Shown here in pieces: positions 34,377 through 57,911 of a stretch of 64,000 nucleotides of DNA. The stretch is from an uncultured Thiotrichales bacterium (GTDB taxonomy: Bacteria > Pseudomonadota > Gammaproteobacteria > UWMA-0217): the NCBI GenBank assembly GCA_964430355.1, contig CAYSFW010000005.1:13177-77176 (forward strand). The letters run 5' to 3'. A model generated the notes under the pieces. That model searched no databases, was not told where the DNA came from, and was given only the letters and a program-made list of their open reading frames with translations. Numbering within the stretch: the first letter of the stretch is position 1; each line of letters opens with the position of its first letter. The translations under genes were made by a program, and so were the position numbers.

Positions 34377-34571
34377 CGCAGTGGCCGTTTCCGCACTGAC
34401 CTGTCGGGCCTGAGTCGCCCGCTCTTTTGTTGGCCGCCTGTATGGCGATGTGTTCTCGCCGCGTCTTGCCGGTCATCACGCCGGTGGCATGACGGAAGCG
34501 CCGCGGGCATCCGCGCCAATCCGTCTCACCGGCCGGTCGCCGTTCCCTTGCCGATTCCGAGTGCGGCGTGC

Positions 34572-38069: not shown

Positions 38070-38500
38070 GTCTCTCCCCTTGCAATCCGTCGCTTGGCAG
38101 GCGCTGGTTAAGCGCGTGCGCAGTTCGAACATCAAACACCTGGCCGGATTTTAGGCGCCCGACCCAGTCGGTTCGGCGACACAGCGCACAGCCGGCCCGC
38201 TATCGAAAGGGACGTTCACACAATAATTGAGCAACCTGGGGAATCGGGATTCGCTCGGCACACAGCGAACCTAGGGCTTGCGGCGAGCGGGAGTGCGCTG
38301 CACAAGACGAGTATCAGCGGGGTGGACACGGTAGAGAGGCGGAGCCGTCGCAGAGGCTTCCTCGCAAAACCGTGAAGTCCGACTAAACTCGAAACAATTA
38401 TTTTCATCGTGTGGCTGGTGTTGTTTCCGCGTGTGGGAACGGTGTCGCGGCTCACGCCGCGTCGTGTTGTGTATCGATGGATTTCCGAGGGAGGTGGGCC

Positions 38501-39331
38501 ATGAGCAAACGGGCGCTTTGCATCGGCATTAATGACTATCCAGGCACCGCGAACGATCTCGCCGGTTGCGTGAATGACGCGCGCGACTGGGCGGATGTGC
38601 TGGATAAGCGGGGGTTCTCCGTCACGACGCTGCTCGACGGCGCCGCGACCAAGGCGGGTATGGTCGCGGCGATCCAGGATCTGATCGGTAGTGCAGTGCG
38701 GGGCGACAGCCTCGTGATCACCTATTCCGGTCACGGCACCTTCGTGCCCGATGCCAGCGGCGACGAGCCCGACGGGCAGGATGAGGGCCTGTGCCCCTAT
38801 GACATCGGCCAAGGCGCAGTGCTGCTCGATGACGAGATCCACGCGTTATTTGCCGCCCGCGGCCCGGGCGTGAAGATCGTGCTGATCTCGGACAGCTGCC
38901 ACTCGGGCACCGTTATCCGCTGGGGCGGACCCGATCCGGACAGCGATGCGCCCCGTGCGCGGTTTCTGCCGCCCGCTGCCTGGATGCCGGCGGAGCGCCT
39001 GCCGAGGAGTGCCTCGGGCGGTAGCCTAACGCGGGTACATCCCGGGCGCCCGGTGCAGAGCGCCTGGACCAACGCGCTGTCACTCGGGGAGGGTGATCTG
39101 CTCATGGCCGGCTGCCGGGATACCGAGTACAGCTACGACGCGCGCTTTGCGGGCCGCCCGAACGGGGCGTTCACCTACTACGCGCTGAAGACCCTCAGGA
39201 CGCTGCCAGCCGGTGCGACCTACGGCAATTGGTACACCGCCATCCGCAACTACCTGCCGGCGGCCAGTTACCCGCAAACGCCGCAGATCCTGGGCGGCAA
39301 GGCGCAGCGGCGCTTCAAGGTCCTGGCGTAA
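38501..39331 (+). CDS. caspase-like peptidase, MEROPS C14 (metacaspase/orthocaspase)
   Basis: 'ALCIGINDYPG...LAGCVNDA', catalytic His in 'YSGHG' and catalytic Cys in 'DSCHSG'. Confidence 0.8.
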   Translation: MSKRALCIGINDYPGTANDLAGCVNDARDWADVLDKRGFSVTTLLDGAATKAGMVAAIQDLIGSAVRGDSLVITYSGHGTFVPDASGDEPDGQDEGLCPYDIGQGAVLLDDEIHALFAARGPGVKIVLISDSCHSGTVIRWGGPDPDSDAPRARFLPPAAWMPAERLPRSASGGSLTRVHPGRPVQSAWTNALSLGEGDLLMAGCRDTEYSYDARFAGRPNGAFTYYALKTLRTLPAGATYGNWYTAIRNYLPAASYPQTPQILGGKAQRRFKVLA

Positions 39332-39470: not shown

Positions 39471-42400
39471 ATGGCAACAACACGTTCCCCCGTCCGCTTG
39501 CAAATCCAGGGCGTTGCCCTCGCGGCCGGGACGCTGCCCAGCCTTCTGCAGGCGGGAAGCCGCTCGGTGAGCGACGCGGACAATCGATTCCTCCCGCCTG
39601 GCTTCGTGCAATCCACACAGGCCTATGACCTGTCGCGCTCAGCGCGCGCGACGGTGGTGCAGGCAGCACACCCCGACGTAGAGCCCGACGCAGTCCTGTC
39701 GCTCGAGCTCGAGGAGGGCGTCACCGTCTTCGTGCGTGCGGATCAGTTCCGTGAGGACCTCGAGCGCAGCGACCCGGATGCCATTCGCGACGGCGAGGTG
39801 ATCCTCGACGAGGCGGTGCGCGATCGCGGCGTGAGCCAGCGCGGGCTGTTCGGCGACGTCGTCAGGCATGTGTTCGTGCTCAAGCTGGGCACTGATGAGA
39901 TCATCGCCGACGCGAAGGCGCAGCTCCTGGAATGGCTCGGTGAGCAGGCCGGCGCGGAGCTCGGCCGCCTGGGTGTCTCCTGGTGGGGCACCAAGGCGCT
40001 AATGTGGGCGATCGAACGCCAGCTCGGCCACGAGCCTGGCCTGTACCGATGGGGAGATGACGGAGCCTTGCGGGAGCGCCTCACCGAGGGGGACGCACGG
40101 CTCGCGCAGGCGGCGCAGCAGGGGCCGCTGCTCGTGTTCATCCACGGCACGGGCTCGAGTGCGGCAGGGAGCTTTGGTGATCTGCGCAGTGCGGACGCCG
40201 CCGCCGACTGGCGCGCGCTCGAGGCCCGGTATGGCGACCGGATCTATGCCTTCGAGCATCGCACCTTGTCGGAAAGCCCTGTGGAGAACGCGCTTGCCTT
40301 GGCGCGCGTGTTGCCCGCTGGGGCGCGCCTGCATCTCGTCACGCACTCCCGCGGTGGGCTGGTGGGCGACTTGCTGGGCCTCGACGGGCTGGATGCGGAA
40401 GCGCTGCAGGGTTTCAAGCGCCGGAAGCTGGGTGATCCCGAGCTCGATGCCGAGCTGGAGCGCGCCGATGCGGCGGACCGGGAGCGCCTGCGCGAGCTCG
40501 CGGCGGTGCTCGCGCTGCGCCGGTTCCACATCGAGCGGTACGTGCGCGTGGCCTGTCCGGCACGCGGCACGCGGCTGGCGAGCGCCAATTTCGACGTGTT
40601 CATGTCGGGTTTGCTGTCGCTGATTGGCCTGGTGCCGACGCTGGCAGGAAGCCCGTTCTACGCCGCGTTCAAGCGTGTGGTGCTGGAGGTGGCGCGCAAC
40701 CGAACCCGGCCCGAGTGCGTCCCGGGTATCGAGGCGATGTTGCCGGACGCACCACTCGGACGGCTGCTGCTCGCGGCGCGGCCCGTCAAGGATCTACGGC
40801 TAGCAGTGATCGCGGGCGACATCGAGGGCGGGGGGCTCCTCAAGCGGCTCGGTGTGCTGTTCACGGACTACGTGTTTTTCGACGCGGTCAACAACGACCT
40901 CGTGGTCGACACCGACTCGATGTATGCCGGCCTTGCGCGGCCTGGCGCCGCCCGCCAACGCTTCGAGCAGGGCGCGGACGTGAGCCACTTCCGCTACTTC
41001 GCCAACCGCGGCTCGCGCGCGGCGCTACGCCAGTGGCTCACGGCCCCGGAGCCCGATGCGCTGGCCGAATTCGAACCGCTGGCGCCGGGCTTCGACGAGC
41101 CGAAGGTCGGCGCGGAGCCGGTCGCGGGCGCGCCCGCCCGCGGCGGCGCGGCCGACCGGCCGATCGTCGTGCTGCTCCCCGGGATCATGGGCTCCCACCT
41201 CACCGCCGACGGCGGCCGGGACCGCATCTGGTTCGACCCGCTCGACATCGCCGCGGGCAAGATCGAGCGGCTGCGCTGGGGCTCAGGCGGCATCGCGGCC
41301 GAGCGCCCGTTCGACCTGTTCTACGGCGATCTGATGCGGTACCTGGCCAGGTCGCAGCGCGTGGAACCGTTCGCCTACGACTGGCGCCAGCCGCTCGAGG
41401 TGCTCGGCGAGGCGCTGGCGGCGCGCGTGCGGGACTGGCTTGCTCAGACCGCCCAGCCCATCCGCTTCCTCGCCCACAACATGGGCGGTCTGGTGGTGCG
41501 GGCGATGATCGCGCGGCATCCCGACCTCTGGGATGAGGTCATGGCCCGCGACGGCGCGCGGTTCGTGATGCTCGGCACCCCCAACCGCGGCTCGCATAGG
41601 ATGGTCGAGACGCTGCTCGGCAAGTCCGAGCTAATCCGGCGGCTCGCGCGCATCGATCTCGGGCATAGCCTGCACCTGCAGGAGCTGCTGGACCTCGTCG
41701 CGGCGTTTCCGGGCGCGCTGCAGCTCCTGCCGCAGCCCGGCTTCGTGGACGAATCGGGCGAGGCCGGGGCGGACTACTATGCCGAACCGGTGTGGCACGA
41801 ACTCAAGGCGGCGTGCCGCGACCTGTGGTTTGGGGACCGCGTTGCCGCCACGCCGGCGCAGGCGGCCCTCGACGCAGTGCACGCCCAGTGGGACGAGCCG
41901 AATTTCAAGGCTGCTCGCCTGCCCGAGCGCCACCGGCAGCGCACGATCTATGTTTATGGGATGGCTGACAACACGCCCTGCGGTCTCTCCCGTCGCGGTG
42001 GCGTGGTGAAGATGCTCGGCACCCCACGAGGCGATGGCGCGGTGACCTGGAAGTCTGGCGCGCTCGAGGGCGTCGGGGCGTACTACTACATGCCTGTGCC
42101 ACACGGCGAATTGCCGGACACGCCGGCCTACTTCCCCGCGCTCGAGGCACTGCTCGAGCGCGGTGCGACTGACGCTCTGCCGACCGCGGCACCCACCCTG
42201 CGCGGTGTCGCACCGGTTCGGTCCTACGACGCCGGACCGACACCGTATCCCACCGCCGAGGAGGTCGCGCGCGGCCTGCTCGACGCCCGTCCGCGCACGC
42301 GCGCGCGCCGGCGGGCCGTGCCCACCCTGGCCGTGCAGTGCACGGCGATGGATCTGCGCTGCGTCACGCAGCCGATCATGGTCGGACACTACGAGCAGGA

Positions 42401-45215
42401 CACCATCGCGGGCGCCGAGGCGCTGATCGACCGCGAGCTCGTCAATCACGAGCTGACTCTGCGCAAACACCTGGGGCTCTATCCCGAGGCCATTGGCACG
42501 GCCACTGTCGTGCTGCAGGCTCGCAACGAGCAGGAGCAGCGTCGGGGGAGTTACCGCGGCGCGGTGGTGATCGGGTTGGGCAAGCTCGGTGAGCTGACCG
42601 GCGCGGGCCTCACCGAGGCGGTGCGCACCGGGACGCTGCGCTACCTGCTACAACTCACCGACATCCGGGCCGGGCGCGGCGAGGCGCACGATGCGGACAT
42701 CTGCCTCGCGAGCCTACTGGTGGGCTCCAATTCCACGACGAACCTCACCATTGAGGATTCCGTCAGCGCCATCGTGCGCGGGGTGCTGGAGGCCAACCGC
42801 CAGTTCGTGGAGACCATGACGCCGGCATCACCCACGCCGCCACGCGTCACGCGCCTGCAATTCGTGGAAATCTTCCTCGAGAACGCGATCGCTGCAGCCA
42901 AGGCCATCCGTACGCTGGCTGCCCAGATCAACGAGCGCGACAGTGCGCGCTACGGTATGCGCGTGGAGGCCGCAAGCGAGCTCTGTCAGGGCGACGGCAT
43001 GCGCCAGCGTCTGGACGTGGGCGGGGTGCAGTCGTTTTGGCCGCGGCTGATCATTGCCGATGCCGATCGCGAGCCCGACGACGAGACCCCGCGCGACGCC
43101 CAACAGCCGGCCACGCGGCTGCGTTTCGTCTTCCTCGGCCAGCGGGCCAGGGCCGAGATGGTGGTGCATCAACGCCAGCCAGGGCTCGTGGAAAAACTCG
43201 TCGACAAGTCGGTGAACCAGCCGCGGTTTCGCAAGGAGCTGTCGCGCTCGCTGTTCCAGCTCATGGTGCCCAACGACTTCAAGGACGCCGCGCGGCAGGT
43301 CGAGCGCATGATGCTGGTGGTCGATGGCTACACCGCCAACCTGCCCTGGGAGCTGATGCTGGCCGATGACCAACCGCTCGCCGTCCAGACCGCGTTGGTG
43401 CGCCAGCTTCGCTCGACGCGGTTCCGTCAGCGCGTCCGCACCACCCTGGATGCGCTCGCCTATGTAGTGGGCAACCCCTCAACGCAGGGCTTTGCCGCCA
43501 GCTTTCCCCGCGCCTCGCGCGACCCGGAGCCGCTCGCCGGCGCCGAGGAGGAGGCCTGCGCGGTGCGCAGCCTGCTTGCCCAGCAGGGCTTTCAGGTCAC
43601 CGAGGCGATTGGCAGGGATCAGGAGGCGCTCGACGTCATTAACAAGCTCTACCTGCAGCCGTATCGCATCATCCACATCGCCGCGCATGGCGTGTACGCA
43701 GAGCCCGACGGCCACGGTCTCGCGCGCAGCGGCGTGGTGCTCTCCGATGGCCTGCTGCTCGGCGCTGCGGAGATCGGACAGATGGAGGTGGTGCCCGATC
43801 TCGTGTTCCTCAACTGCTGCCACCTCGGCAAAACGGACACCTTGCCAGTGGCGTTCAACCGGCTGGCCTACAGTGTGGCGCGCGAGCTTATCGAGATCGG
43901 CGTGCGCGCCGTGGTGGTGGCCGGCTGGGCGGTGGATGACCAGGCCGCGCGCCTGTTCGCGGAGACCTTCTACGGCGCGCTGATCGGCGGCGACCGGCCC
44001 TTTGGCGAGGCGGTGTTCACGGCGCGCAAGAAGGTTTATGAGCGTTATCCGGAGAGCAATACCTGGGGCGCCTACCAGGCTTATGGCGACCCGGGATTCC
44101 TCATCCGTCCGGGTGTGGTGCGGGCGAACGGCGGCGCATCCGCCGCCTGGCAGCCGGTGACCATTGAGGAGCTGATCGAGCGGCTGACGGCGGCGCGCAA
44201 TGACATCCGGCGCATGGCCAAAGCACTCGATACGCGCGAGGCCCGGCGGCGGGCCGCCGAGTGTGGGCGCCTGCTCAAGGCTTGCCCGGCGCGCTGGTTG
44301 TCGGCGCCGTCGGTTAACGCGGAGCTCGGCCGATACTTCGCCGAGCTCGGCCCAGCCTATTTCGGCAAGGCGCGCAGGCATCTGGAACAGGCCGTTCAGG
44401 CCGAAGACCGGCTGGCCCGGGTACCCATCACCGCGCTCGAGCTACTCGCGAACCTGGAGGCGCGACAAGGCGAGATCGACGCCGATCTGCCGCTCGTCGA
44501 TCGTGCGATCCAGCGTCTCCTCGCCCTCGTGGAAGGGACGGGCGCCGGCACCGTCAATCCGGAGCGTTGCGCGTTGCTCGGCAGCGCCTACAAGCGGCGC
44601 GCGGTCGTGCTCGCGCGCGGCGAGGCGGGCGCGAACGGCTCGCGCAAGCTGCGCGGGCAGGTCAGTGAGGCGTTGAGCGCCAGCATCACGTGGTACCAGC
44701 GTGCCGAGGGCGCGCCTGGCGAGGGTAACTTCCGGCCTTACCATGCGCTCAACCGTCTGGCGCTGCAGGCCGTGGTTGATTTCGAGCGGCCGGAGGTGGA
44801 CGGCGATCGGGTCGCGCTGGCGCGATTTTGCGCTGAGGCGGCGACTGAGCGCTTCCGCCGTGAGCCCAATTTCTGGGATGCGATCGGCGTCGCCGATGCC
44901 CAACTCACCCAAAGCCTGCTCGACCGGACGCTGGAAGACCCGGGTGCGCCCGGCGATCTCGCGCTCGAGACGGTGCGGCGTGCCTATCGGGAAGGGCTCG
45001 TGGGCACCCTCGTCCAGCCGAAGCATCTCGATTCGGTCGTCGCGCAGATCCGTCAGATAGCCGAGCTGTACCGCGCACTCGTGAAGTTCGCGCAGCGCGA
45101 CCGGCGCGAGGCCGCACAGCGCACGGCGCTGAGACTCGACACGCTGGCCGGTGATCTGGCTCCTCGGGTCGCTCAACCGCCGTTGCTGGCAGAGTCGCAG
45201 GACGCGGAACGTTGA
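39471..45215 (+). CDS. 1914-aa multidomain protein: unknown N-terminal domain + two lipase-like alpha/beta-hydrolase domains + CHAT (caspase-like) protease + helical/TPR-like C-terminus
   Basis: Hydrolase 1 '[11 protein letters not shown]...[10 protein letters not shown]' (intact GxSxG). Hydrolase 2 '[11 protein letters not shown]...[10 protein letters not shown]' (Asn in the nucleophile position). CHAT 'RIIHIAAHG' plus '[10 protein letters not shown]'. Confidence 0.8.
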
Positions 45216-46303: not shown

Positions 46304-47536
46304 TCAAAGCAGGGCTGATTCGATCTTCCCGCGCAGCCGCTCGATGCGGCGCAGGGTTTGCGGGGAGCGATCCAGACGCGCACCGAGCGAGAGCGCTGTA
46401 GCGTAGTCCTTAAGGTGATGCTCGTGGTATTTCGCGAGGTGCTCCAGCGAGGTCTGACAGCCCTCGGCTGCGAGCCGGTGCCAGATCGCAACGGCGGCTC
46501 GCCAGTCACCCGCGCGACGGTGCAAGCGCGCGAGCAGGCCAAGGGCGCGTGCATCGAGTGCCTGCGCGCGGCTGGCGAGCAAGGAACGAGCGCGTTCCGG
46601 GTCACTGCCGCTGATCCAGGACGCAAGGGCGTGCAGATCGAGATCGGGGTGCGTGGGGGCTCTGCAGGCGTGACCCAAGGCAACGTGAGACGCCGCCAGC
46701 GACACAAGATCCTCGCAGTTGTGCTGGGTGACCTGCACGAGCCGATCTATAGCACCGAGGTTCAACCAATCGAACCAGGCCTGCGGCACTTCGGACCCCG
46801 GCAGATCGTCACGGCGGCGGTAGCCGAGCAGGCGGGCTTCGACGCTCGTCAATCGACAGTCGGGCCAGCTCGCGGCAAACAGCCTGCGCATTGGGTGCAG
46901 CAGGTCGAGATGCCCGAGTGCGGGTAGGGGATCGCGCAGGCCGTGCATGCGCAAGCGCGTGGCGAGCAGCGGGGCATCGAAGCTCCGACCGTTGTAGGTC
47001 ACGAGGTGGTCCGCTGGTTCGAGCGCGCTGGTGAGCTCGGCGAGCAGGGTGGCCTCACCGACGAAGCGGGTGAGCAGCCATTGCGTGACCCGCAGCCGTT
47101 CGCCTCGCACGCGCGCCAGCCCGACAAGGAAGGCGAGGGTGCCGCTGCCGCCGCTGAGTCCCGTGGTTTCGGTGTCGAGGTAGACGTGTTGCTCGGGCTT
47201 GATGTCTGGCCCGCCCGGCAGCGGCACGGGATGCCGGAGGTTGGCCAGCGGGATCCCGCCCCGCTGACTGTCGAGCGGAACGTCGCGTTCAATGCGAATG
47301 AGACCGTCGGCGATGAGTTCACCACCCGCGCGCGCGGCGAGTTCCGCGGATGTCGCACGCGCCGTGCTGGCGGGCGCAAGGCCGCGGGCGCGCGCGCCCG
47401 ACAGTCGGGCGAGCCGGTCGCGGAGGGTGCTCGTGGGGTTGCCGCTGGCCTGCGCATCGGGCGGGGATGCGCCCGGCGCCGGCGGTCGCGCGCCGGCCTG
47501 CCTTTGTAGCTCAGCGAGTCTATCGCGCAGGTTCAT
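46304..47536 (-). CDS. YprB/MrfB-like RNase H-fold exonuclease with C-terminal TPR
   Basis: 'VYLDTETTGLS' and 'LVTYNGRSFD' DEDD/RNaseH-like exonuclease motifs. Overlaps the upstream helicase stop. Confidence 0.7.
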   Translation of the reverse strand: MNLRDRLAELQRQAGARPPAPGASPPDAQASGNPTSTLRDRLARLSGARARGLAPASTARATSAELAARAGGELIADGLIRIERDVPLDSQRGGIPLANLRHPVPLPGGPDIKPEQHVYLDTETTGLSGGSGTLAFLVGLARVRGERLRVTQWLLTRFVGEATLLAELTSALEPADHLVTYNGRSFDAPLLATRLRMHGLRDPLPALGHLDLLHPMRRLFAASWPDCRLTSVEARLLGYRRRDDLPGSEVPQAWFDWLNLGAIDRLVQVTQHNCEDLVSLAASHVALGHACRAPTHPDLDLHALASWISGSDPERARSLLASRAQALDARALGLLARLHRRAGDWRAAVAIWHRLAAEGCQTSLEHLAKYHEHHLKDYATALSLGARLDRSPQTLRRIERLRGKIESALL

Positions 47537-49953
47537 GGCGTTGGCGTCGCGTCGGTCAGCAGGCCCAGCACGGTGAGTGCTGCGGCCCTCGGCGAGTAGC
47601 CACGGTCGGCATCCGAGGCGAGGATGGGGCCGATGCAGCTGGGGCAGCCGTCCTCGCACTCGCAGCGCTCGATGAGGCGCAGGGCGTCCATGACGATGCG
47701 GGCACGCTGTTCGTACAGCGGCTCGCTGAGGCCGATGCCGCCGGGATAGTTGTCGTAGAGGAACAGCGTCGGCACGAACTGTGCGAGCGCCGCGGGATCG
47801 ACGGCTTGCCCGTCCATACCTCGCATCTGCCCGCGCCCTTGGCTGCCAGTAGTCGCGAACCAGGTCGCGTTACCGTCGCCCACGGCGCGGCCCAGATCCC
47901 GGGGTTCGGCGAGCATGCGCATCGCGGCGACGTGGTGCATGGCATAGGCCGCGCCGAGAAAGCCGTCGAGTGCCTGCTGCCGACTGGGGAAGGCGCAGTC
48001 GAGCGCGCCGGGCTCGACCTGCCACCACACCGCGGTGGTGTGCATCTCCTGGTCGGGCAGGTGGATGTCGCCGTAGCCGATGTTCTCGTGGGTGTAGTAA
48101 CGGATCTTCTTGTACCCGGCGATGCGGCGCACGAGATGCACCTCGCCGTGCGCGCTTGCCTGCGTCGCCCCGGGGACATGTGCGAAGGACTCGAGGATCT
48201 TGAGCTTCGTGTAGTCGATGGCGTCGGTGTAGTAGTCGGCGCGGGTGCGGGTGACGAAGGCCTTGCGCCCGGTCCAGTCGAGCCGTTCCACCTGCCAGGG
48301 TTGGGCCTGGATCATGTAGATTGCGCCTTCGTAGAGCGTCATCGGTGCGGCGCTGTAGTCCACCTCGGCGATGATCTTCTGCTGGCCGTCCGTCGTGTCC
48401 ATCACCACGAAATTCCCCTCGGCGACGGAACGCAGGCTGACGGCATTGGCTGGATAGCTGTCCGCCGACCAGTGCCACTGGGCACCCTCGCGGTGCAGCA
48501 CGCCAGCTTCCTCAAGATAGGCCAGCAGGTCCGGGAGGCTCGGGGCGTTGCCGAAGCGCTCGCCGTCGCGGAACGGCAGTTCGAAGGCCGCGCAGCGCAC
48601 GTGGTCGAGCAGGATCAGGAGTTGATCCGGGTCGATGCGTGCCGTCTCCGGCGAGGCGCCGAGGAAGAACTCCGGGTTGCGTACGATGTACTGATCGAGC
48701 GGCTGCGAGGTGGCGACCAGTACGCCGAGCGACGTGCGCTGCCTTCGCCCCGCGCGGCCCAGGCGCTGCCAGGTCGCCGCGATGGTGCCGGGATAGCCGT
48801 TCAACACGCAGACATCGAGCGCGCCGATGTCCACCCCGAGTTCGAGCGCGGAGGTGCTCACCACGCAGTCGATCTGACCCTCGCGCAGCTTGCGTTCCAT
48901 CGCACGGCGCTCGGTCGGCAGGTACCCGCCCCGGTAGGCGGCGATGCGGGCCGGCTTGCGGGGGTCGTGGTCGAACACGTCCTTCAGGTACTTCGTCAGC
49001 ACCTCGACCATCAGCCGCGACTGGGCGAACAGGATGCTTTGCAGGCCGAGCTTGACCGCCAGGCGGGCGATGCGCGTGGTCTGCGAGCGGGCCGAGGCGC
49101 GGATGCCGAGATCGGGATTGATCACCGGCGGGTTCCACAGCAGCAGGTGCTTCGCGCCCTGCGGCGCGCCGCTCTCGGTGATCGCGCGCACCGGGGCCTC
49201 GATGAGGCGGCTCGCGAGTTCCGCCGGGTTGGCAATCGTTGCCGAACACAGGATGAATTGCGGGGAGGTGCCGTAGAACCGGCAAATGCGCTGCAAGCGC
49301 CGCAGCACGTTCGCCACGTGGGCGCCGAACACGCCGCGGTAGGTGTGCATCTCGTCAATCACCACGTAACACAGCGACTCGAAGAACTGCGCCCACTTGG
49401 TGTGGTGCGGCAGGATGCCCTGATGCAGCATGTCCGGGTTGGAGACCACGATATCGCCGCGGGTGCGCACCGCCTTGCGCGCATCGCCCGGGGTGTCGCC
49501 GTCGAAGGTAAAGGCGCGCACGCCGAGGCGGCCCGCCTCATTGAGCTCGAGCAACTCGGCGACCTGATCCTGCGCGAGCGCCTTGGTGGGAAACAGGTAC
49601 AGCGCCTTGGCCTGCTCGCGCATCGCGGCCTGCAGCACGGGCAGGTTGTAGCAGAGCGTCTTGCCTGAGGCCGTGGGGGTGACGATGACGACGTGCTCGC
49701 CGCCGTGCACGGCCTCCCACGCCTGGGCCTGGTGTGAGTAGAGCCGGGCGATGCCGCGTGCCTGCAACGCCCCGGCGAGCCGGTCGTCCAGGTCCGCCGG
49801 GAGGGGCGCGAACCGTGCGGCGCGCGCCGGAATCTGCAGTTCACCCGTGATATGCGACTTGTATTTCTTACGCAGACGATCGGCCAGCTCTGCAACGGGG
49901 TCTGACGGGCCCTCGGCGACGGTGCGCAGCGCTGCGGTCATGGCGTTCTCCAT
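47533..49953 (-). CDS. DEAD/DEAH-box helicase with C-terminal DUF1998 zinc domain (MrfA/YprA-like)
   Basis: 'TPTASGKT' Walker A, 'VIDEMH' box and C-terminal 'CECEDGCPSC' zinc cluster. Start taken at MENAM. Confidence 0.85.
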   Translation of the reverse strand: MENAMTAALRTVAEGPSDPVAELADRLRKKYKSHITGELQIPARAARFAPLPADLDDRLAGALQARGIARLYSHQAQAWEAVHGGEHVVIVTPTASGKTLCYNLPVLQAAMREQAKALYLFPTKALAQDQVAELLELNEAGRLGVRAFTFDGDTPGDARKAVRTRGDIVVSNPDMLHQGILPHHTKWAQFFESLCYVVIDEMHTYRGVFGAHVANVLRRLQRICRFYGTSPQFILCSATIANPAELASRLIEAPVRAITESGAPQGAKHLLLWNPPVINPDLGIRASARSQTTRIARLAVKLGLQSILFAQSRLMVEVLTKYLKDVFDHDPRKPARIAAYRGGYLPTERRAMERKLREGQIDCVVSTSALELGVDIGALDVCVLNGYPGTIAATWQRLGRAGRRQRTSLGVLVATSQPLDQYIVRNPEFFLGASPETARIDPDQLLILLDHVRCAAFELPFRDGERFGNAPSLPDLLAYLEEAGVLHREGAQWHWSADSYPANAVSLRSVAEGNFVVMDTTDGQQKIIAEVDYSAAPMTLYEGAIYMIQAQPWQVERLDWTGRKAFVTRTRADYYTDAIDYTKLKILESFAHVPGATQASAHGEVHLVRRIAGYKKIRYYTHENIGYGDIHLPDQEMHTTAVWWQVEPGALDCAFPSRQQALDGFLGAAYAMHHVAAMRMLAEPRDLGRAVGDGNATWFATTGSQGRGQMRGMDGQAVDPAALAQFVPTLFLYDNYPGGIGLSEPLYEQRARIVMDALRLIERCECEDGCPSCIGPILASDADRGYSPRAAALTVLGLLTDATPTP

Positions 49954-49986
49954 TCGTTCTCCTGCTAGACTATAGAGAACGAATGG
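49950..49986. promoter_or_regulatory. 37-bp element: 12-bp perfect inverted repeat CCATTCGTTCTC-N13-GAGAACGAATGG spanning the divergent mrfA/lexA starts
   Basis: Read directly. It contains GTTC/GAAC half-sites and an adjacent GAAC-N7-GAAC direct repeat (49977-49991). It overlaps the mrfA ATG and ends 14 nt before the lexA ATG. Confidence 0.5.
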
Positions 49987-49999
49987 AGAACGGGCAACC

Positions 50000-50602
50000 A
50001 TGCAACTGACGCGGCGGCAACGCGAAATCCTCGACTGGCTGCGGGCTCACGCCGACGCCTTCGCGCAGCCGCCCACGCTGGATGAACTCTGTCAGGCGCT
50101 GGGGATGGCCTCGCGCGGCTCCCTGCACAAGCATATCCAGGCGCTGGTGGAGGCGGGGCTCGTCGAACCGCTGGAGGGCAAGCGGCGCGGCGTGCGGCTG
50201 CGGGAGGAGAGCGATGCACCAGAGCCCGGGATTCCGCTCCTTGGGAGCATCGCCGCAGGGCGGCCCATCGAAGCGGTTCCGCAGCCCGTTTATATGCCGG
50301 TGCCGCCGGAGCTTCTGACCGGGGGTGACTGTTACGTGCTCAAGGTGCGCGGGGATTCGATGATCGACGAGGGCATCCTCGACGGTGACTGGGTGGTGAT
50401 CGAACGACGCGATCACGCGCGCAACGGCGAGATCGTCGTTGCCCTCGTGCGCGAGGCCGAGGCCACCCTCAAGCGCATCGAGCAGCGGCCGGGCGAGGTG
50501 CTGCTGCACGCGGCAAACCCGGCGATGCCGACGCTGCGCTACCACCCGGACGAAGTCCGCATCCAGGGCGTGCTGGTCGGCTTGATGCGCCGCTACCGAT
50601 GA
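50000..50602 (+). CDS. lexA: LexA repressor
   Basis: Winged-HTH N-terminus, 'AAG' cleavage site, 'GDSM' Ser nucleophile and 'ATLKR' Lys. Confidence 0.9.
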   Translation: MQLTRRQREILDWLRAHADAFAQPPTLDELCQALGMASRGSLHKHIQALVEAGLVEPLEGKRRGVRLREESDAPEPGIPLLGSIAAGRPIEAVPQPVYMPVPPELLTGGDCYVLKVRGDSMIDEGILDGDWVVIERRDHARNGEIVVALVREAEATLKRIEQRPGEVLLHAANPAMPTLRYHPDEVRIQGVLVGLMRRYR

Positions 50603-50651
50603 AGGCAGCATTTTGCGCGCGCGGTACTCTCGGTTGGCAACCACTGGCCGT

Positions 50652-51242
50652 ATGATCGCAGGTCCCACGCAAACCCGGGCGATTGACGCCATGCCGCTGT
50701 CCGACCTCTATCTCGATCTCAAGGATCTGCTGTTCCCGACCCGGGTCGAGCAGGTGTCGCCACGCTCCGAAGGGCAATTCGTCCGCGGCATCAACCTCGG
50801 CGGCGACGCAGTCACCATCGACGGCCTCCGCTGGGAGGGCTACCGGCAGGCCCTCGGCAACGGCTTGGCCACCCCCGGTGCCACTGCCGCGCGGACGTCC
50901 GTCAAGCCCGAGCCCTACCTGGGCGGGGATCTGCGACGCATGTTCAATACCGTCGTCTACCGCCCGCGAACGCTCGATCTGTCGGTCAGCCTTGGCAACG
51001 GCGCGTACAAAGTCTACCTGTGGGTCATGGAAAACCACCAATCCGGCTGGCACGGCATGGAGCTGCGCATCGACGGCAAGCCGGTTGATCGTGAAATCGG
51101 CCGTCTGCCGCTGGGCGGCTGGAAGAATTACGGACCCTATCCCGCTGAGGTGGGCGGCGGTGAGCTTTCCATCACGCTCGACACCGGCAGCGACCAGGTC
51201 GACGCGCACCTGATGGGCCTGAGCATCTACCGCATGCGCTGA
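50652..51242 (+). CDS. hypothetical protein, apparently co-transcribed with lexA
   Basis: ORF opens 11 nt after the lexA stop at a TTG (50613). ATG candidates at 50652 and 50691. No recognisable motif. Confidence 0.4.
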   Translation: MIAGPTQTRAIDAMPLSDLYLDLKDLLFPTRVEQVSPRSEGQFVRGINLGGDAVTIDGLRWEGYRQALGNGLATPGATAARTSVKPEPYLGGDLRRMFNTVVYRPRTLDLSVSLGNGAYKVYLWVMENHQSGWHGMELRIDGKPVDREIGRLPLGGWKNYGPYPAEVGGGELSITLDTGSDQVDAHLMGLSIYRMR

Positions 51243-51441: not shown

Positions 51442-51934
51442 TCGAATCAACGGGTTGCGGGCTCTTTGGCGTGAAGCTGTGAGAGTGCGCGACTCGTGTC
51501 CCAGACACCCCTTCCATACCCACTGATGCCCTGGGCCCACCGCAGCAGCCTGTAGAACAAGCTGCGCGGTCGAATCGCGAGTTCGCTAACGCCTTCATCC
51601 CCGTACGGGCCGCTCAGGCCACACCGCTGCCGGTTTCGGCCAGCGCGATTGTGACGACGGGCAGCGTCGGCGCGTCACAAACTGAATGTCGTCGTCTACC
51701 GCCCGGGCGGCGCCCACCTCTATCCTTGAATCGCGATCGTGACTGACAAGCTGCCCGATGCGCCGGGTTGCTCCCCTGGGGTGTCCGGGCGTGCACAGGG
51801 ACCTGAACGACGGGCTGCGAACGGCGGGGCGTCAACGCCAGAGGGCGCACTACCACGCGGGAGCATGGGGGCGTACGTCGATGCGCTGTCCGCGTAACTT
51901 ACGCCATAGAAACCACGAAAATGAGGGGGGTCAG

Positions 51935-52495
51935 ATGCGAAAAAACCACTTTGCTGTGCGTGGAGGTCGTTGTTTCCCCGGCGGGCGTTGGCGGGCCTGG
52001 TTGCTCGCGATGTTCGCGACACTGATGGTGGGAGGTCCCGCCCAGGCGGCCATTCCGGATGCGCTCGAACCCTTGGTGGTCGAGGCGCCGTTCAGCGTCA
52101 CCGGCCGGGTTTTCGACCTGACTGACGCATTCCAGCGTGCCGCCGTGGAGAACAAGCCCGTGTTCATCTACCTCGGCGCCAAGGACTGTTCCTCGTGCGC
52201 CGCGTACTCGAATTTCCTCGAACTCAACGCGAGCCTGCTCAAGCCGAGCTTCGAACGGCTCGTCGTCGTTGACATCCGCACCCGCATGGGTGGCCTGCCG
52301 ATGGTGTTCAAGATCGGCGAGAAACGCTACTCGTTCGAGGCGTTCAAGCGCCTCGTAGGCGACCAGAACAAGTTTCTGACGTTTCCGTATTTCTGGCTGG
52401 TCGGCCCCGACCTCAAGCAACTCCGCCAGCTGCCGATGGGCGCCTTCGAGGAGACGCGTGTTGAGCGCCACATCGAGCTCATGCGCGTTCCCTGA
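51935..52495 (+). CDS. periplasmic thioredoxin-fold protein (CxxC)
   Basis: Signal peptide, 'LGAKDCSSCAAY' CxxC, SD gagggggg upstream. The long overlapping antisense ORF 51899..52750 is considered spurious. Confidence 0.55.
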   Translation: MRKNHFAVRGGRCFPGGRWRAWLLAMFATLMVGGPAQAAIPDALEPLVVEAPFSVTGRVFDLTDAFQRAAVENKPVFIYLGAKDCSSCAAYSNFLELNASLLKPSFERLVVVDIRTRMGGLPMVFKIGEKRYSFEAFKRLVGDQNKFLTFPYFWLVGPDLKQLRQLPMGAFEETRVERHIELMRVP

Positions 52496-53993: not shown

Positions 53994-56900
53994 TTATTCC
54001 CAGACGCTCGATCCGTCGGCGATTCCCTCGCACGGCTGCCACGTCCCGGTGTGCGTGAACAGCAGGCCTGCCTCGAGTTCCTGCCGCGGCCAGATGCGGC
54101 GGACGCCGGCGGCATAGAGCCCGAGCTGGGCTCGATACTGTTGTGCGATGGCAGCCAACCGCTGGGGGTCGGACTCGCGGTGGGTCTTGTAGTCGATAAG
54201 CAGGATGTGCCGCGGGGTGACCACCAGGCGGTCGATCACGCCGTAAACCATGCGCTCATCTACCCGATAGACGATCGGCAGCTCGTTGTAGGCCACGGCG
54301 CCGGGTTCCAGCCGAAACGCCCGCGGGAATGCTGCGAGCGCGTGCCGGGCCTCCTCCAGCCACTCACGCAAGTCCGGGTCGTCGGCCCCAACGCCGAGGT
54401 CGCCGCCGATGCGGGCCAGCAGTTCCTCATCGCGCCAACGTGGTGCCGGGCGGGACAGATGATCCAGAAAGGCGTGGATGGCCTGGCCGCGCACGCGGCC
54501 ATCCTCATCCTCGGTGACCGCGCTGCTCGCAGCGGCGCTTGGCACCGCGGCCCGGCTGGGCGTGACGGAGCGGGGGTGCTGGCCCGCCGGAAACGGCTTA
54601 TCGAGTCCTATGGGGGCGACGGTTGGCGGCTCGACAGCGTCTGCGCTGGCACAGGGGGTGACTGTCGGGATTGTACCCGACTGCATCGCCCAGGCCTTGG
54701 CGAAATCCAAGCCCTCGCCCTGGAGCGCAAGGCGCAGGCGGCCGTAAAGCGTCGACCCAATCTTCGTTTGCCGGTTCCCAGCGGCGCTCAGCACCAGCAT
54801 CTGGCGCGCGCGGGTCAGGGCGACGTAGAGCAGGTTCGCGGATTCCCGCGCCTGCAGACGCGCAATCTCGGCCTGCAAGCCGTCGGAGTATGCGTCCCGA
54901 TGCTCCTTCTTCTGCAGAAGAAGGAAGGTCGTAGGCCGGGGCTCGGTGGCTGGCCACAATACCAGCGCATCGCCCCCACGGGCGGGTTTGTCCTGCTGCG
55001 CGCCCAGGCCGGCGTAGAAGATCACTGGCGCCTCCAGGCCCTTGGCCGCGTGGATGGTGAGGATCTCCACGGGCGCGGCGTCGTGCTCCGGCACGGGCTC
55101 AGAAGGACTGTCCTCATCGCTGCCTTCGAGGTCGGTCAGCCGCTCGAGAAAGCGCTCGAGGCTCGGGTAGCGTCCGCTGTCCAGTTCGAGCGCCAACTCC
55201 ACCAGTCGCTGCAGATTGGCGCCCACCTGGGCGCGCTGCCAGGGTTGCACGGCCGCGCGATAGCGCGCGAGCACGTCGCCTTCGTGGAAGACGCGGTCGA
55301 GCAGGTCGTGCAGGGGGAGAGTGGCGGTGAGCTTGCGCCAGTGCTTGAGCCAGTGCGCCGCGCGCGCCAGCGGGTGATCGGTGGCAAGGTCGGGCGCGAG
55401 CCGCAGGAGCGCGTCATACCAGCGCCGGTGGTTGCTGATCGGCTGCGCGAGCCGGGCGAGGTCGTCGTCTCCCGCGGCGAAGAGCGGTGAACGCAGCACC
55501 TGCGCAAGGGCGAGGTTGTCGTGCGGGGTGGCGAGCACGGTGAGCAGCGCCCGCACGTCGCGCACCTCGAGCCGTTGCAGCAGTCCGCCGCGCCGCGTGC
55601 CGCGAAAAGGGATATGTGCCGCGCGCAGGGCCGCCTCGATCGCCTCCGCATGGGTGCGCTGGCGCAGCAGGATCTTGATGTCGCCGTAGCGAATGGGGCG
55701 CTCTGCGCCGGGCTCGCCGATGCACCAACCCGAGGTGACGAGCGCCTGAATGCGCGCTGCGATCAGGCTGGCCTCGGCGGCCTGGGCGCGCCGTGGGGTG
55801 GGGCGGGGTGTGGTGAGCGGGTTGCGCAGCGTCCCTGTGTCTTGAGCCTCTTTGGGGGCATCGTCCTCGTCGATGGTGGCCACCGGCAGGCACTCCACGC
55901 GACCCCACAGCGCGGTCTTGTGCGTGCCGTGGTGATGAAACGCGGTAATTTGCTCGATAAACCCCGGGGCGATGAACACACGGTTCACGGCATTGATGAT
56001 CGCGGGTGCCGAGCGTCGCGACTGATCGAGCGACGCCCGCGCACTGCCGAGGTGCTTCTCCAGCCATTCGGCGGCGGCCTCCTGCAGTTCCGGGTTGGCG
56101 CGGCGGAAGCCGTAGATCGACTGTTTGGCATCGCCGACCAGGAACACGCTGCGCTGGCGGTCCGAGGCGGCGGCGAATTCCTCGAGCAGTGGCAGGAGCA
56201 GCCGCCACTGCGTGGGGTTGGTGTCCTGGAATTCATCGATGAGCAGATGCTCGATCTGGCGGTCGAGTTTGTACTGTACCCAGTGGCAGTCGTCGGCACG
56301 GTTCAGCAGCCGGTAGGCAAGCCATTCGAGGTCGGCGAAGTCGAGCTGACGGCGCTGGCGCTTGATGTGCTGGAAGAGTTCGAGGTAGCGCGCCCCGGCG
56401 AGATACCAGGCGCGGTTGACCGCGACCGCGCGTTGCCGACGGAGCTGGTCGCGCAGCGCGAGCATCTCCTCACCCAGTGCTTGGTGCTGGTCGAGGAGCC
56501 GCCGTGCGCGATCGGGTCCGAGGGCCTTGTCGAGCGTTTTGCTCGGCTTCGGGTCCTTGCGCAGCGTGCCTTCCTGGGTGAGGAAGGCAGCGGCAGCGCC
56601 CTCGAGCAGCAAGACCGGATCGTCGTGACCTAAAACGCGCTTGAGCTTTGCGGCGTTGCTACGCAGCGTGTTGCTGTTGCGCTCGTCCCCGAGCAACTCG
56701 GCGTATGCGCGGAGTTCCTCCCGCTTGCCGACGTCGAAGAAACGTGCGGCGTAGTCGATGGTGGGATCGACGTCGAACTGGCGCTGCATCGCACTGGTCG
56801 CGGCGGCGACCGGATCACGCTCACCCTCCGTATAGGCCCACCAGTCCGCCCGGTGTGCGAGGAACTGCTTTAGCACCTCCCGCGTGCCGACGAGTCCACC

Positions 56901-57431
56901 GCACGTGTCGAACAGCGTGGACAACGCGTGAGCGAGGGGACTCTCCTGTGCGGCAGTCGCTTCGGCAAACAGCGTATCGAGCGCCGCATCGCTCTGCTCC
57001 TGATGCGATTCGAGCAGCTCAAAGCCGGGGGGGACGCCCGCCTCGAGCGGGAAACGCGCGAGCAAGTCCTGGCAGAAGGCATGGAAGGTGCTGATGCGCG
57101 GCGGAAAATCCGCCCACAGCAAGGTCTCGTACAGACTGCGCGCCCGGCTGCGCAGCGAGGCATCCGCGGCGCAGCCGATCTGCTGCAGCGCCGCATCCAG
57201 TTCCGCATCGTCCGCGAGCGCCCACATCCTGAGCCGGTCGAGCAGCCGCTCGCGCATCTCCCCGGCCGCCTTGCGGGTGAAGGTGATGGCCAGCAGCGAA
57301 CCGGGGTCCGCGCCGTCGAGCAGCAGGCGCAGGATGCGGGAGACGAGCAGCCAGGTCTTGCCCGTGCCCGCGGAGGCGAAAACGGTGCAGGAGCGCTGCG
57401 GCGACAAGGCGGCGGATGGGACTGCGGTCAT
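53994..57431 (-). CDS. AddA-like UvrD-family helicase with C-terminal RecB-type PD-(D/E)XK nuclease
   Basis: 'ASAGTGKTWLL' Walker A, UvrD motifs, and C-terminal 'GVIDRLVV...LLIDYKT' nuclease motif. No addB-like gene is adjacent. Confidence 0.8.
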   Translation of the reverse strand: MTAVPSAALSPQRSCTVFASAGTGKTWLLVSRILRLLLDGADPGSLLAITFTRKAAGEMRERLLDRLRMWALADDAELDAALQQIGCAADASLRSRARSLYETLLWADFPPRISTFHAFCQDLLARFPLEAGVPPGFELLESHQEQSDAALDTLFAEATAAQESPLAHALSTLFDTCGGLVGTREVLKQFLAHRADWWAYTEGERDPVAAATSAMQRQFDVDPTIDYAARFFDVGKREELRAYAELLGDERNSNTLRSNAAKLKRVLGHDDPVLLLEGAAAAFLTQEGTLRKDPKPSKTLDKALGPDRARRLLDQHQALGEEMLALRDQLRRQRAVAVNRAWYLAGARYLELFQHIKRQRRQLDFADLEWLAYRLLNRADDCHWVQYKLDRQIEHLLIDEFQDTNPTQWRLLLPLLEEFAAASDRQRSVFLVGDAKQSIYGFRRANPELQEAAAEWLEKHLGSARASLDQSRRSAPAIINAVNRVFIAPGFIEQITAFHHHGTHKTALWGRVECLPVATIDEDDAPKEAQDTGTLRNPLTTPRPTPRRAQAAEASLIAARIQALVTSGWCIGEPGAERPIRYGDIKILLRQRTHAEAIEAALRAAHIPFRGTRRGGLLQRLEVRDVRALLTVLATPHDNLALAQVLRSPLFAAGDDDLARLAQPISNHRRWYDALLRLAPDLATDHPLARAAHWLKHWRKLTATLPLHDLLDRVFHEGDVLARYRAAVQPWQRAQVGANLQRLVELALELDSGRYPSLERFLERLTDLEGSDEDSPSEPVPEHDAAPVEILTIHAAKGLEAPVIFYAGLGAQQDKPARGGDALVLWPATEPRPTTFLLLQKKEHRDAYSDGLQAEIARLQARESANLLYVALTRARQMLVLSAAGNRQTKIGSTLYGRLRLALQGEGLDFAKAWAMQSGTIPTVTPCASADAVEPPTVAPIGLDKPFPAGQHPRSVTPSRAAVPSAAASSAVTEDEDGRVRGQAIHAFLDHLSRPAPRWRDEELLARIGGDLGVGADDPDLREWLEEARHALAAFPRAFRLEPGAVAYNELPIVYRVDERMVYGVIDRLVVTPRHILLIDYKTHRESDPQRLAAIAQQYRAQLGLYAAGVRRIWPRQELEAGLLFTHTGTWQPCEGIADGSSVWE

Positions 57432-57911
57432 GCCAGTTCGGGATTGGAAATTTGCCAAAGCCTAACAAGCCGGACGCCCGGTGGTCGAATCGTTGGGGTG
57501 CGTTCGAGGGGCTGCCGCGCGTAGTTTGGTGTGCTCGCGCGGTAGGGTCACGTGGCCTGTGATGTCACACCGCGCGTACGGCCAACGTGCAGGTCTTGGA
57601 AGCGCACGAGCTGTTCGCGCTAAGCGCTTGAACAGGCTATGCTTCAAGCCAGAGACTACGGTTGCTCGCGGGCCGACCATCGAGTGTGCAAGGCGTGTTT
57701 CGAATCGCATGGCCGCAAGCGATGACTGTCGGTGTGTGGAGCGCCATCCGTGGGTGGGCTGGCGCTGATTCGGCAACGGGCATCGGTGGTCCGTCGCGAA
57801 CGGACGACGGCGCTCGTTGATGTGTCCGCCAGCGACTGGATGTTTGAGTTTTGACCCGAATCGGTGCGAATCACCGGTTTGCATTTTCCCGTCCAACTGT
57901 CAGGAGTGTTC

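Follow-up and report, generated by a model that had tools for sequence, protein, structure and literature searches.

The lexA-mrfAB locus

The region described here lies in a 64-kb stretch of DNA from an uncultured Thiotrichales bacterium (contig CAYSFW010000005.1); the whole stretch is called the window and is numbered from its first nucleotide. The lexA gene on the plus strand and homologues of the mrfA and mrfB genes on the minus strand diverge from a short intergenic region filled by a 49-bp inverted repeat, and this element is probably a LexA operator common to both. The features of the locus are as follows.

50000-50602, plus strand: lexA, 200 amino acids; N-terminal winged-helix LexA DNA-binding domain PF01726 (9.7e-14) and C-terminal S24 peptidase domain PF00717 (2.9e-29)
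47533-49941, minus strand: mrfA (yprA) homologue, 802 amino acids; DEAD, Helicase_C, winged-helix and MZB (formerly DUF1998) domains
46304-47536, minus strand: mrfB (yprB) homologue, 410 amino acids; DnaQ-like/RNase_H_2 exonuclease, PF13482
49944-49961: left arm of the inverted repeat, CGTTCTCCATTCGTTCTC, holding putative LexA box L, GTTC-N7-GTTC at 49945-49959 (plus strand)
49962-49974: spacer, CTGCTAGACTATA, 13 nt, non-palindromic, with two overlapping, oppositely oriented -10-like hexamers
49975-49992: right arm, GAGAACGAATGGAGAACG, holding putative LexA box R, GAAC-N7-GAAC at 49977-49991 (GTTC-N7-GTTC on the minus strand)

Judged by its sequence the plus-strand gene encodes a true LexA. 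The protein scored 181.9 bits against the TIGR00498 equivalog model (cutoff 110.95), and its cleavage residues, IAAG at 83-86 (Ala85-Gly86), GDSM with Ser120 and LKR with Lys158, fall in the same alignment columns as those of E. coli LexA. The first minus-strand product is a superfamily 2 DEXH helicase with the motif DEMH at residue 196 and a CxCx3CxxC cluster (Cys 760, 762, 766 and 769), which matched B. subtilis YprA/MrfA (PDB 6znp) with an E value of 5.2e-225; it thus combines the DEXH core, C-terminal zinc-binding domain and four cysteines used as criteria by Burby & Simmons (10.1101/426304). The second matched PDB 8un9, "Exonuclease MrfB", with an E value of 9.2e-28. Its DTETTGL, YNG..FD and HN..D motifs were aligned, the catalytic residues being taken from the alignment and not from structure mapping, and it shows the DnaQ-like domain, the acidic residues and the position directly downstream of mrfA. 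Since the mrfB start codon (47536-47534) and the mrfA stop codon (47535-47533) overlap as ATGA (gccATGAac), the two genes were assigned to one operon. An earlier note on this DNA had described lexA as divergent from a DUF1998 helicase gene of an "mrfA-mrfB-like pair"; domain content and coordinates confirm the arrangement, and the pair are true homologues.

In B. subtilis, MrfAB (yprAB) form a mitomycin-C repair operon (10.1101/426304; PMC7797055). The genes of the window resemble it in encoding a DEXH helicase with a zinc-binding Cys4 cluster followed by a DEDDh-type exonuclease, in the same order and in one operon, and differ in sharing a promoter region with lexA. The P. aeruginosa mrfAB genes failed to complement B. 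subtilis (10.1101/426304), and the function of MrfAB in distant species may differ.

Structure of the intergenic element

The start codons of mrfA (ATG at 49941, minus strand) and lexA (ATG at 50000, plus strand) are separated by 58 nt (49942-49999), and not by about 47 nt as previously estimated. The inverted repeat between them consists of perfect 18-nt arms and a 13-nt spacer. Because each arm carries a complete GTTC-N7-GTTC, with same-strand GTTC tetramers exactly 7 nt apart, the palindrome and the direct repeat are a single structure: a 15-bp direct-repeat box that is present twice, in inverted orientation, the two centres being 32 bp (about three helical turns) apart. The earlier note had recorded parts of this arrangement. 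Its 12-bp arms CCATTCGTTCTC (49950-49961) and GAGAACGAATGG (49975-49986), separated by N13, are present but form only the inner part of the 18-nt arms; its GAAC-N7-GAAC repeat is likewise present at 49977-49991 but is not a separate feature, and the second copy, in the left arm, had gone unreported. What had been called a 37-bp perfect palindrome is an interrupted inverted repeat of 49 bp, the spacer of which is not palindromic.

With spacers of up to 40 allowed, the element exceeds every other perfect inverted repeat of the window in length; the longest arms found in ten shuffles of the window were 10-13 nt, against 18 nt observed. A position-specific scoring matrix built from related lexA promoters gave 29.7 bits for box R and 26.4 bits for box L, and less than 10 bits everywhere else, so that no LexA box beyond these two was identified in the window by the matrix scan. 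Exact matches to GTTC-N7-GTTC number four in the window, which is within chance (10/100 shuffles), and the two outside the element (4690 and 29604) each scored below 10 bits. The E. coli-type operator CTGT-N8-ACAG has no match across the whole 64 kb, the lexA promoter included, in agreement with the absence of CTGT...ACAG noted before.

Conservation in related lexA promoters

Relatives were collected by scanning one genome per species, and about 130 nt upstream of lexA was taken from 80 loci, of which 67 belong to a gamma/betaproteobacterial clade (LexA identity 54-77%). Upstream and matrix scans located GTTC-N7-GTTC directly upstream of lexA in about 60 of these 67, and CTGT-N8-ACAG in none of the 80. 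The usual layout is that of the window: GTTCTC-N5-GTTCT, some 13 nt including TAGAAT or TATAAT, and AGAAC-N6-AGAAC. The consensus of 96 boxes reads tGTTCTc-N5-GTTCT(c/a)t. Boxes thus occur in the lexA promoter of the window and are conserved in orthologous promoters.

The layout is the same in about 35 loci with divergent mrfAB and in Sedimenticola, Methylococcales and others which have no helicase neighbour; the element therefore belongs to lexA and not to the helicase. The lexA-mrfAB module is retained in about half of the clade's loci, and mrfA genes separated from lexA still keep a box (L014, L007). Applied to known cases, the same upstream scan recovered CTGT-N8-ACAG twice each for the lexA genes of E. 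coli, Ralstonia and Pasteurella, and two or three units of GAAC-N7-GAAC for those of S. meliloti, Shinella, Methylobacterium, Sphingomonas and Cereibacter. In the next-closest LexA clades the lexA promoters had other repeats and no GTTC boxes.

In five loci (L007, L026, L058, L064 and L021) the operator stands beside mrfA, with 160-290 bp extra before the lexA start. The additional leader of L026 is repetitive ("ccctctccctcag..."), which suggests insertions into the lexA leader.

Among the other repeats, the Acidobacteriota loci L068-L079 (Thermoanaerobaculia, Holophagales; LexA identity 42-49%) carry approximately TTACGC-N5-TTACGC, with an 11-bp period, about 30-60 nt upstream of lexA. This repeat is flanked by a TTGAC -35 and a -10-like hexamer, as in L073 ("TTGACgTTACGCccagtTTACGCCtaaagt"), and is possibly a LexA motif in its own right, distinct from the GTTC-N7-GTTC that has been reported for Acidobacterium capsulatum. 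In Methylophaga thalassica (L085, NZ_CP143310.1), ATTCTC-N5-ATTCTC takes the place of GTTCTC-N5-GTTCTC about 30 nt upstream of lexA. A candidate direct-repeat LexA site in Ca. Saccharibacteria (L070) consists of TTCGGTAT-N3-TTCGGTAT, again with an 11-bp period, after a TTGACA-like hexamer.

Promoters and translation starts

A consensus promoter scan called one promoter-like site on the minus strand, TTGCCC-17-TATAGT, where 0.0 were expected. The tentatively identified promoter elements are the following.

49992-49997, minus strand: TTGCCC, -35-like hexamer of the mrfA promoter, 17 nt from TATAGT; box R occupies the spacer
49974-49969, minus strand: TATAGT, -10-like hexamer of the mrfA promoter, called by the scan
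49966-49971, plus strand: TAGACT, putative -10 hexamer of lexA, read by eye; with TG at 49963-49964 it resembles an extended -10

In relatives the hexamer corresponding to TAGACT is TAGAAT or TATAAT. As read from the upstream regions, a TTG just beyond the right box is found again in relatives with the linked helicase but not in the Sedimenticola loci that have no helicase. Given these -10 hexamers, each box would overlie the spacer/-35 region of one promoter and the predicted transcript start of the other.

On the sense strand of either gene the outer half-site is GGAGAAC, placed at Shine-Dalgarno distance from the respective ATG. The outer half of the left arm (GGAGAAC on the minus strand) likely doubles as the Shine-Dalgarno sequence of mrfA, and GGAGAA at 49985-49990 is the likely one of lexA. 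The mrfA ATG at 49941 is in the frame of the open reading frame, and in relatives the ATG is likewise 3-5 nt from the left box. An in-frame ATG upstream, at 50001, was rejected in favour of 49941: a start at that position would extend the gene across the operator and into the lexA start codon, and it is also disfavoured by homologue alignments and by the conserved ATG position beside the left box.

The LexA lineage and its recognition helix

The closest relatives of the window LexA (57-77% identity) come from metagenome-assembled genomes of Thiotrichales and Ectothiorhodospiraceae, from Thiogranum, Sedimenticola, Ca. Thiodiazotropha, Methylococcales and Chromatiales, and from a few Burkholderiales; Acidobacteriota and others follow at 42-49%. 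Between the helicase and its counterparts in the two best-matching Thiotrichales assemblies the identity is 83%. Since the closest LexA and MrfA relatives are gammaproteobacterial, the host of the window is a gammaproteobacterium and not an alphaproteobacterium, despite the alpha-type box. The window has 65% G+C and carries ATP sulfurylase and sulfate permease genes.

In a neighbour-joining LexA tree with 100 bootstrap replicates, the GTTC-associated gamma/beta clade was recovered in 97/100 and 94/100, with the alphaproteobacterial and E. coli-type groups separate from it (bootstrap 100 each); the deeper branching of this tree was unresolved. All LexA proteins found beside GTTC boxes share the recognition-helix pattern S-[KR]-[GS]-x-[ILV]-H-[KR], the helix of the window LexA reading SRGSLHKHIQAL. 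Helices and boxes compare as follows.

Window LexA: SRGSLHK, GTTC box
Alphaproteobacterial LexA: SKSGIHR, GTTC box
Distant metagenome LexA proteins (41-46% identity, same double boxes): SKGTVHR, GTTC box
E. coli LexA: SPNAAEE, CTGT-N8-ACAG
Methylophaga LexA: SHGTAHR, ATTCTC-N5-ATTCTC

This correlation suggests, rather than proves, that specificity determinants reside in the helix. The Methylophaga pair (SHG in place of S[KR]G, ATTC in place of GTTC) might be a one-residue/one-base change of specificity.

Putative operators beside other genes

In Sedimenticolaceae a second double inverted GTTCT-N6-GTTCT operator was located a few hundred bp downstream of lexA (L040, 5073-5120; L016, 1322-1369; L020, 4648-4695; L031, 4967-5014; L027, 8517-8565), and one was also found in metagenome locus L117 (1831-1876). 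In L040 it lies between a SET-domain-like gene and a 51-amino-acid open reading frame with a hydrophobic tail; PF00856 was confirmed for the L117 homologue of the former. Both the SET-domain gene and the short reading frame, which is perhaps a small membrane peptide, are possible new members of the SOS regulon. When metagenomes were searched for the double operator, the matches included about 28 lexA promoters, nine mrfA promoters and one SET-domain gene, with no recA, uvrA, imuAB or other core SOS gene among them.

The lexA of a 61-kb plasmid of Methylobacter sp. YRD-M1 (NZ_CP091426.1; L081, 5162-7627) is of the same type (63% identity) and is divergent from umuD and a Y-family polymerase gene (umuC); one GTTCTCTTTTTGTTCT box lies in the interval, and a Tn3 transposase is encoded close by. 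The locus looks like a mobile lexA-umuDC cassette.

About half of the metagenome matches were unrelated, long, perfect hairpins in which a pair of tandem 11-mers is followed by its inverted copies, for example GTTCTTCAGTC twice followed by GACTGAAGAAC twice (loci L099, L105, L107, L116, L125, L131, L139, L144, L154, L156, L157, L162, L165, L169 and L170). They occur in Bacteroidota-like contigs, often near genes for BspA-type leucine-rich-repeat surface proteins, and seem to be a separate repeat family which matched the pattern by chance.

Proposed regulation of lexA and mrfAB

Based upon the conservation of the boxes and the identities of the genes, the best explanation is that the element is a GTTC/GAAC-based LexA operator (a double SOS operator) shared by lexA and mrfAB, to which we attach a probability of roughly 0.8. 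Under this reading lexA and the mrfA-mrfB operon are both most likely subject to DNA-damage (SOS) control. The earlier note had proposed SOS control through such an operator and had termed it non-canonical. The proposal stands; the label holds only by the E. coli yardstick, since GTTC-N7-GTTC is the LexA motif of the Alphaproteobacteria (PMC8565304, PMC3323433, PMC9578287).

In the proposed mechanism the two inverted GTTC-N7-GTTC boxes flank the -10 hexamers of two overlapping divergent promoters, and each direct-repeat box would bind one LexA dimer, two dimers thus occupying the shared operator. Box R would fall between the -35 and -10 hexamers of the mrfA promoter while covering the lexA transcript start, and for box L the roles would be exchanged. 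With both boxes occupied, lexA (by autoregulation) and the mrfA-mrfB helicase-exonuclease operon would be off; upon DNA damage LexA would cleave itself under stimulation by RecA, and both would be de-repressed. The protein has the Ala-Gly site and the Ser/Lys dyad that such cleavage requires. As the box centres are about three turns apart, two bound dimers would face the same side of the DNA, and this spacing makes cooperativity between them possible.

Several findings weigh against this interpretation. No recA, uvrA, imuAB, ssb or other SOS gene lies in the 64-kb window, which thus offers no regulon cross-check; the promoter scan called no plus-strand promoter for lexA; and the perfect 18-nt complementarity of the arms is not kept in relatives, so that this perfection is a local peculiarity, perhaps due to chance or local conversion. 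The protein itself falls outside the alphaproteobacterial lineage: it is 36-40% identical to alpha LexA (36% to E. coli LexA), its clade grouped with alpha LexA in only 2/100 bootstraps, and it lacks the long linker, a 30-40 residue insertion, of the alpha proteins (200 versus about 227-246 amino acids). On these three grounds a recent lateral transfer of an alphaproteobacterial lexA was rejected, and the case for a shared specificity is made from the operators and not from homology.

The alternative that survives best, which we nevertheless hold to be unlikely, is that this LexA is a second, cassette-bound paralogue, comparable to P. putida LexA2 with imuA-imuB-dnaE2, which controls only itself and mrfAB while an E. 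coli-type LexA encoded elsewhere runs the main SOS response through CTGT-N8-ACAG. Duplicated lexA genes with diverged motifs are documented (PMC8565304); the conservation of lexA-mrfAB as a unit in about half of the clade, the lack of a further box in 64 kb and the plasmid copy with umuDC, which indicates that this lexA type can travel as a cassette, would all fit. On the other side, the score of the protein exceeds the NCBIfam lexA equivalog cutoff, the gene lies on large chromosomal contigs in varied contexts, many clade members (Sedimenticola, Methylococcales) keep the boxes without a linked helicase, and Sedimenticolaceae have additional operators beside other genes. No second lexA was seen within +/-4 kb, the stretch covered in each genome.

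It is improbable that a regulator other than LexA binds the GTTC repeats, as the earlier note had suggested by way of alternative. Direct repeats spaced by 11 bp are typical of some response regulators too, but here the boxes track the promoter of this LexA clade's own gene in about 60 loci whatever the neighbouring gene, are missing from the lexA promoters of the next-closest clades, and have the sequence of an established LexA box of another class (PMC8565304). No regulator gene other than lexA is conserved in the neighbourhood across relatives.

The direct repeat as the probable recognition unit

The distances between GTTC tetramers were histogrammed in 65 upstream regions with no spacing assumed. 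Same-strand pairs gave a single sharp peak at 11 bp (93 pairs, versus 3 in a control region). Opposite-strand distances were spread over four values in each class (20-23, 31-34 and 42-45). Promoters with one box exist (L006, L008, L036, L053 and the Methylobacter plasmid). At the seven variable positions the two boxes are 46% identical, and all seven are complementary in only one of 35 loci, while the GTTCT cores are invariant. The sharp peak, the spread of the inverted distances and the single-box promoters together identify an 11-bp-spaced direct repeat as the conserved unit.

A LexA dimer reading the palindrome instead, with inner halves GTTCTC-N13-GAGAAC and the direct repeats incidental, is accordingly most improbable. 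Most LexA proteins do bind palindromes, that of the window has a short, E. coli-like linker, and the arms are perfectly symmetric; against this, the palindrome implied by the earlier note fails as a recognition unit in that the distance between inner halves, and so from box to box, varies by 4 nt in relatives while the same-strand spacing stays fixed at 11, the variable positions are not complementary, boxes without an inverted partner are common, and a centre-to-centre distance of about 21 bp far exceeds that of any LexA palindrome quoted in PMC8565304 (up to GGTT-N10-AACC).

Weakest of all is the notion that the inverted repeat works as a hairpin in RNA or DNA, be it a terminator, an attenuator or a processing site, in place of a protein site, which we regard as barely credible: the 18-bp perfect stem could fold, but its pairing is not conserved in relatives, which show no compensatory changes, no T-run follows it, the scan called no terminator, there is nothing to terminate between divergent start codons, and the sole Rfam match, to a miRNA hairpin model at E 0.14, was judged to be chance and rejected.

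Comparison with known LexA systems

The SOS box of Alphaproteobacteria (Rhodobacter sphaeroides, Caulobacter crescentus, Sinorhizobium meliloti) is like that of the window in having two same-strand GTTC tetramers 11 bp apart from start to start and in its occurrence, often as multiple copies, in the lexA promoter. The lexA genes of S. meliloti and Shinella have GAAC-N7-GAAC followed by an inverted near-copy, and those of Cereibacter, Methylobacterium and Sphingomonas have three tandem units. The helix pattern S-[KR]-x-x-[IL]-H-[KR] of the alpha proteins is similar too. In contrast, the window LexA belongs to a clade of its own without the linker insertion, in gammaproteobacterial hosts, and the consensus of this clade extends to GTTCT, the boxes typically occurring as a diverging pair on either side of a -10 hexamer.

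Outside the Alphaproteobacteria, GTTC-N7-GTTC has a precedent in the LexA box of A. capsulatum, as quoted from Mazon et al. 2006 in PMC3323433 and PMC7739468; the case was explained, in the account given by PMC3323433, by lateral acquisition of an alphaproteobacterial lexA. The window LexA, unlike that one, is not of alpha lineage, and the Acidobacteriota relatives retrieved here show TTACGC-N5-TTACGC.

The E. coli-type SOS box, standard in Gamma- and Betaproteobacteria, has the same role, with operators in tandem at the lexA promoter serving autoregulation (two each in E. coli, Ralstonia and Pasteurella); in sequence and symmetry it is entirely different. The LexA of the betaproteobacteria Sideroxydans/Gallionella is said to be unrelated to the class-standard CTGT type and to use the motif of another phylum, as the window LexA would. 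That motif is reportedly a Gram-positive-like palindrome, GAACGaaCGTTC, with a regulon validated by electrophoretic mobility shift assay in work attributed to Sanchez-Alberola et al. in 2015. It differs from the predicted operator of the window, which is a direct repeat. The 2015 study is among those cited in PMC8565304.

LexA motif turnover and direct-repeat LexA boxes are already documented (PMC8565304, PMC7739468), direct-repeat recognition having evolved several times (PMC7739468), so that nothing here is categorically new and the motif itself is known. What is unusual is a gammaproteobacterial LexA lineage with an alpha-type box, together with candidate SOS control of mrfAB. No report of this clade's motif or of mrfAB under LexA was found in the literature, of which coverage was partial, so that a prior description is possible.

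A wider picture, offered tentatively and at rather less than even odds, would join these observations. In sulfur-oxidising and methanotrophic Gammaproteobacteria and some Burkholderiales, a separate LexA lineage with a short linker and the helix S-[KR]-G-x-[LV]-H-[KR] would have replaced the CTGT type as the only SOS repressor, its GTTC-N7-GTTC specificity being either independent or deep-ancestral; two dimers would bind cooperatively to the characteristic operator, an inverted pair of boxes three turns apart that spans bidirectional promoters; and mrfAB would be a core regulon member, the first link between MrfAB and SOS.

CTGT-N8-ACAG is taken as the rule in Gammaproteobacteria (PMC3323433). 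If the interpretation is correct, this assumption, with the Xanthomonadales as its exception, would fail in a large environmental group (Thiotrichales, Chromatiales, Ectothiorhodospiraceae, Sedimenticolaceae, Thiodiazotropha symbionts and Methylococcales), and in such genomes a prediction of the SOS regulon from the E. coli motif would overlook all of it. The same direct repeat read by a 36-40% identical LexA without the long linker would be a new case for how LexA motifs change or converge, accompanied by a simple, testable recognition-helix correlation, and the MrfAB helicase-exonuclease pathway would be placed under DNA-damage control in Proteobacteria.

Neighbouring genes

Two reading frames downstream of lexA (50613-51242 and 51758-52495) were considered as operon partners and rejected, being unconserved in all relatives and giving no informative family match. 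At 53994-57458 an AddA-like protein of 1154 amino acids combines a UvrD helicase with a PD-(D/E)XK nuclease domain and has no LexA box upstream. A DinG-type Helicase_C_2 fragment (80-946) lies at the window edge, its promoter being outside the window.

Beside the mrfAB operon, a caspase-like Peptidase_C14 gene (38411-39331) is followed by a gene for a 1914-amino-acid protein (39471-45215) with DUF7379, CHAT and TPR-S sensor domains; the Peptidase_C14 and CHAT pair looks like a conflict- or defence-type protease module. Two large minus-strand genes at 28155-37496 (2073 and 974 amino acids), with DUF11, SdrD_B and CarboxypepD_reg repeats, probably encode surface adhesins, and the first of them contains a 14-nt perfect inverted repeat at 32496-32558.

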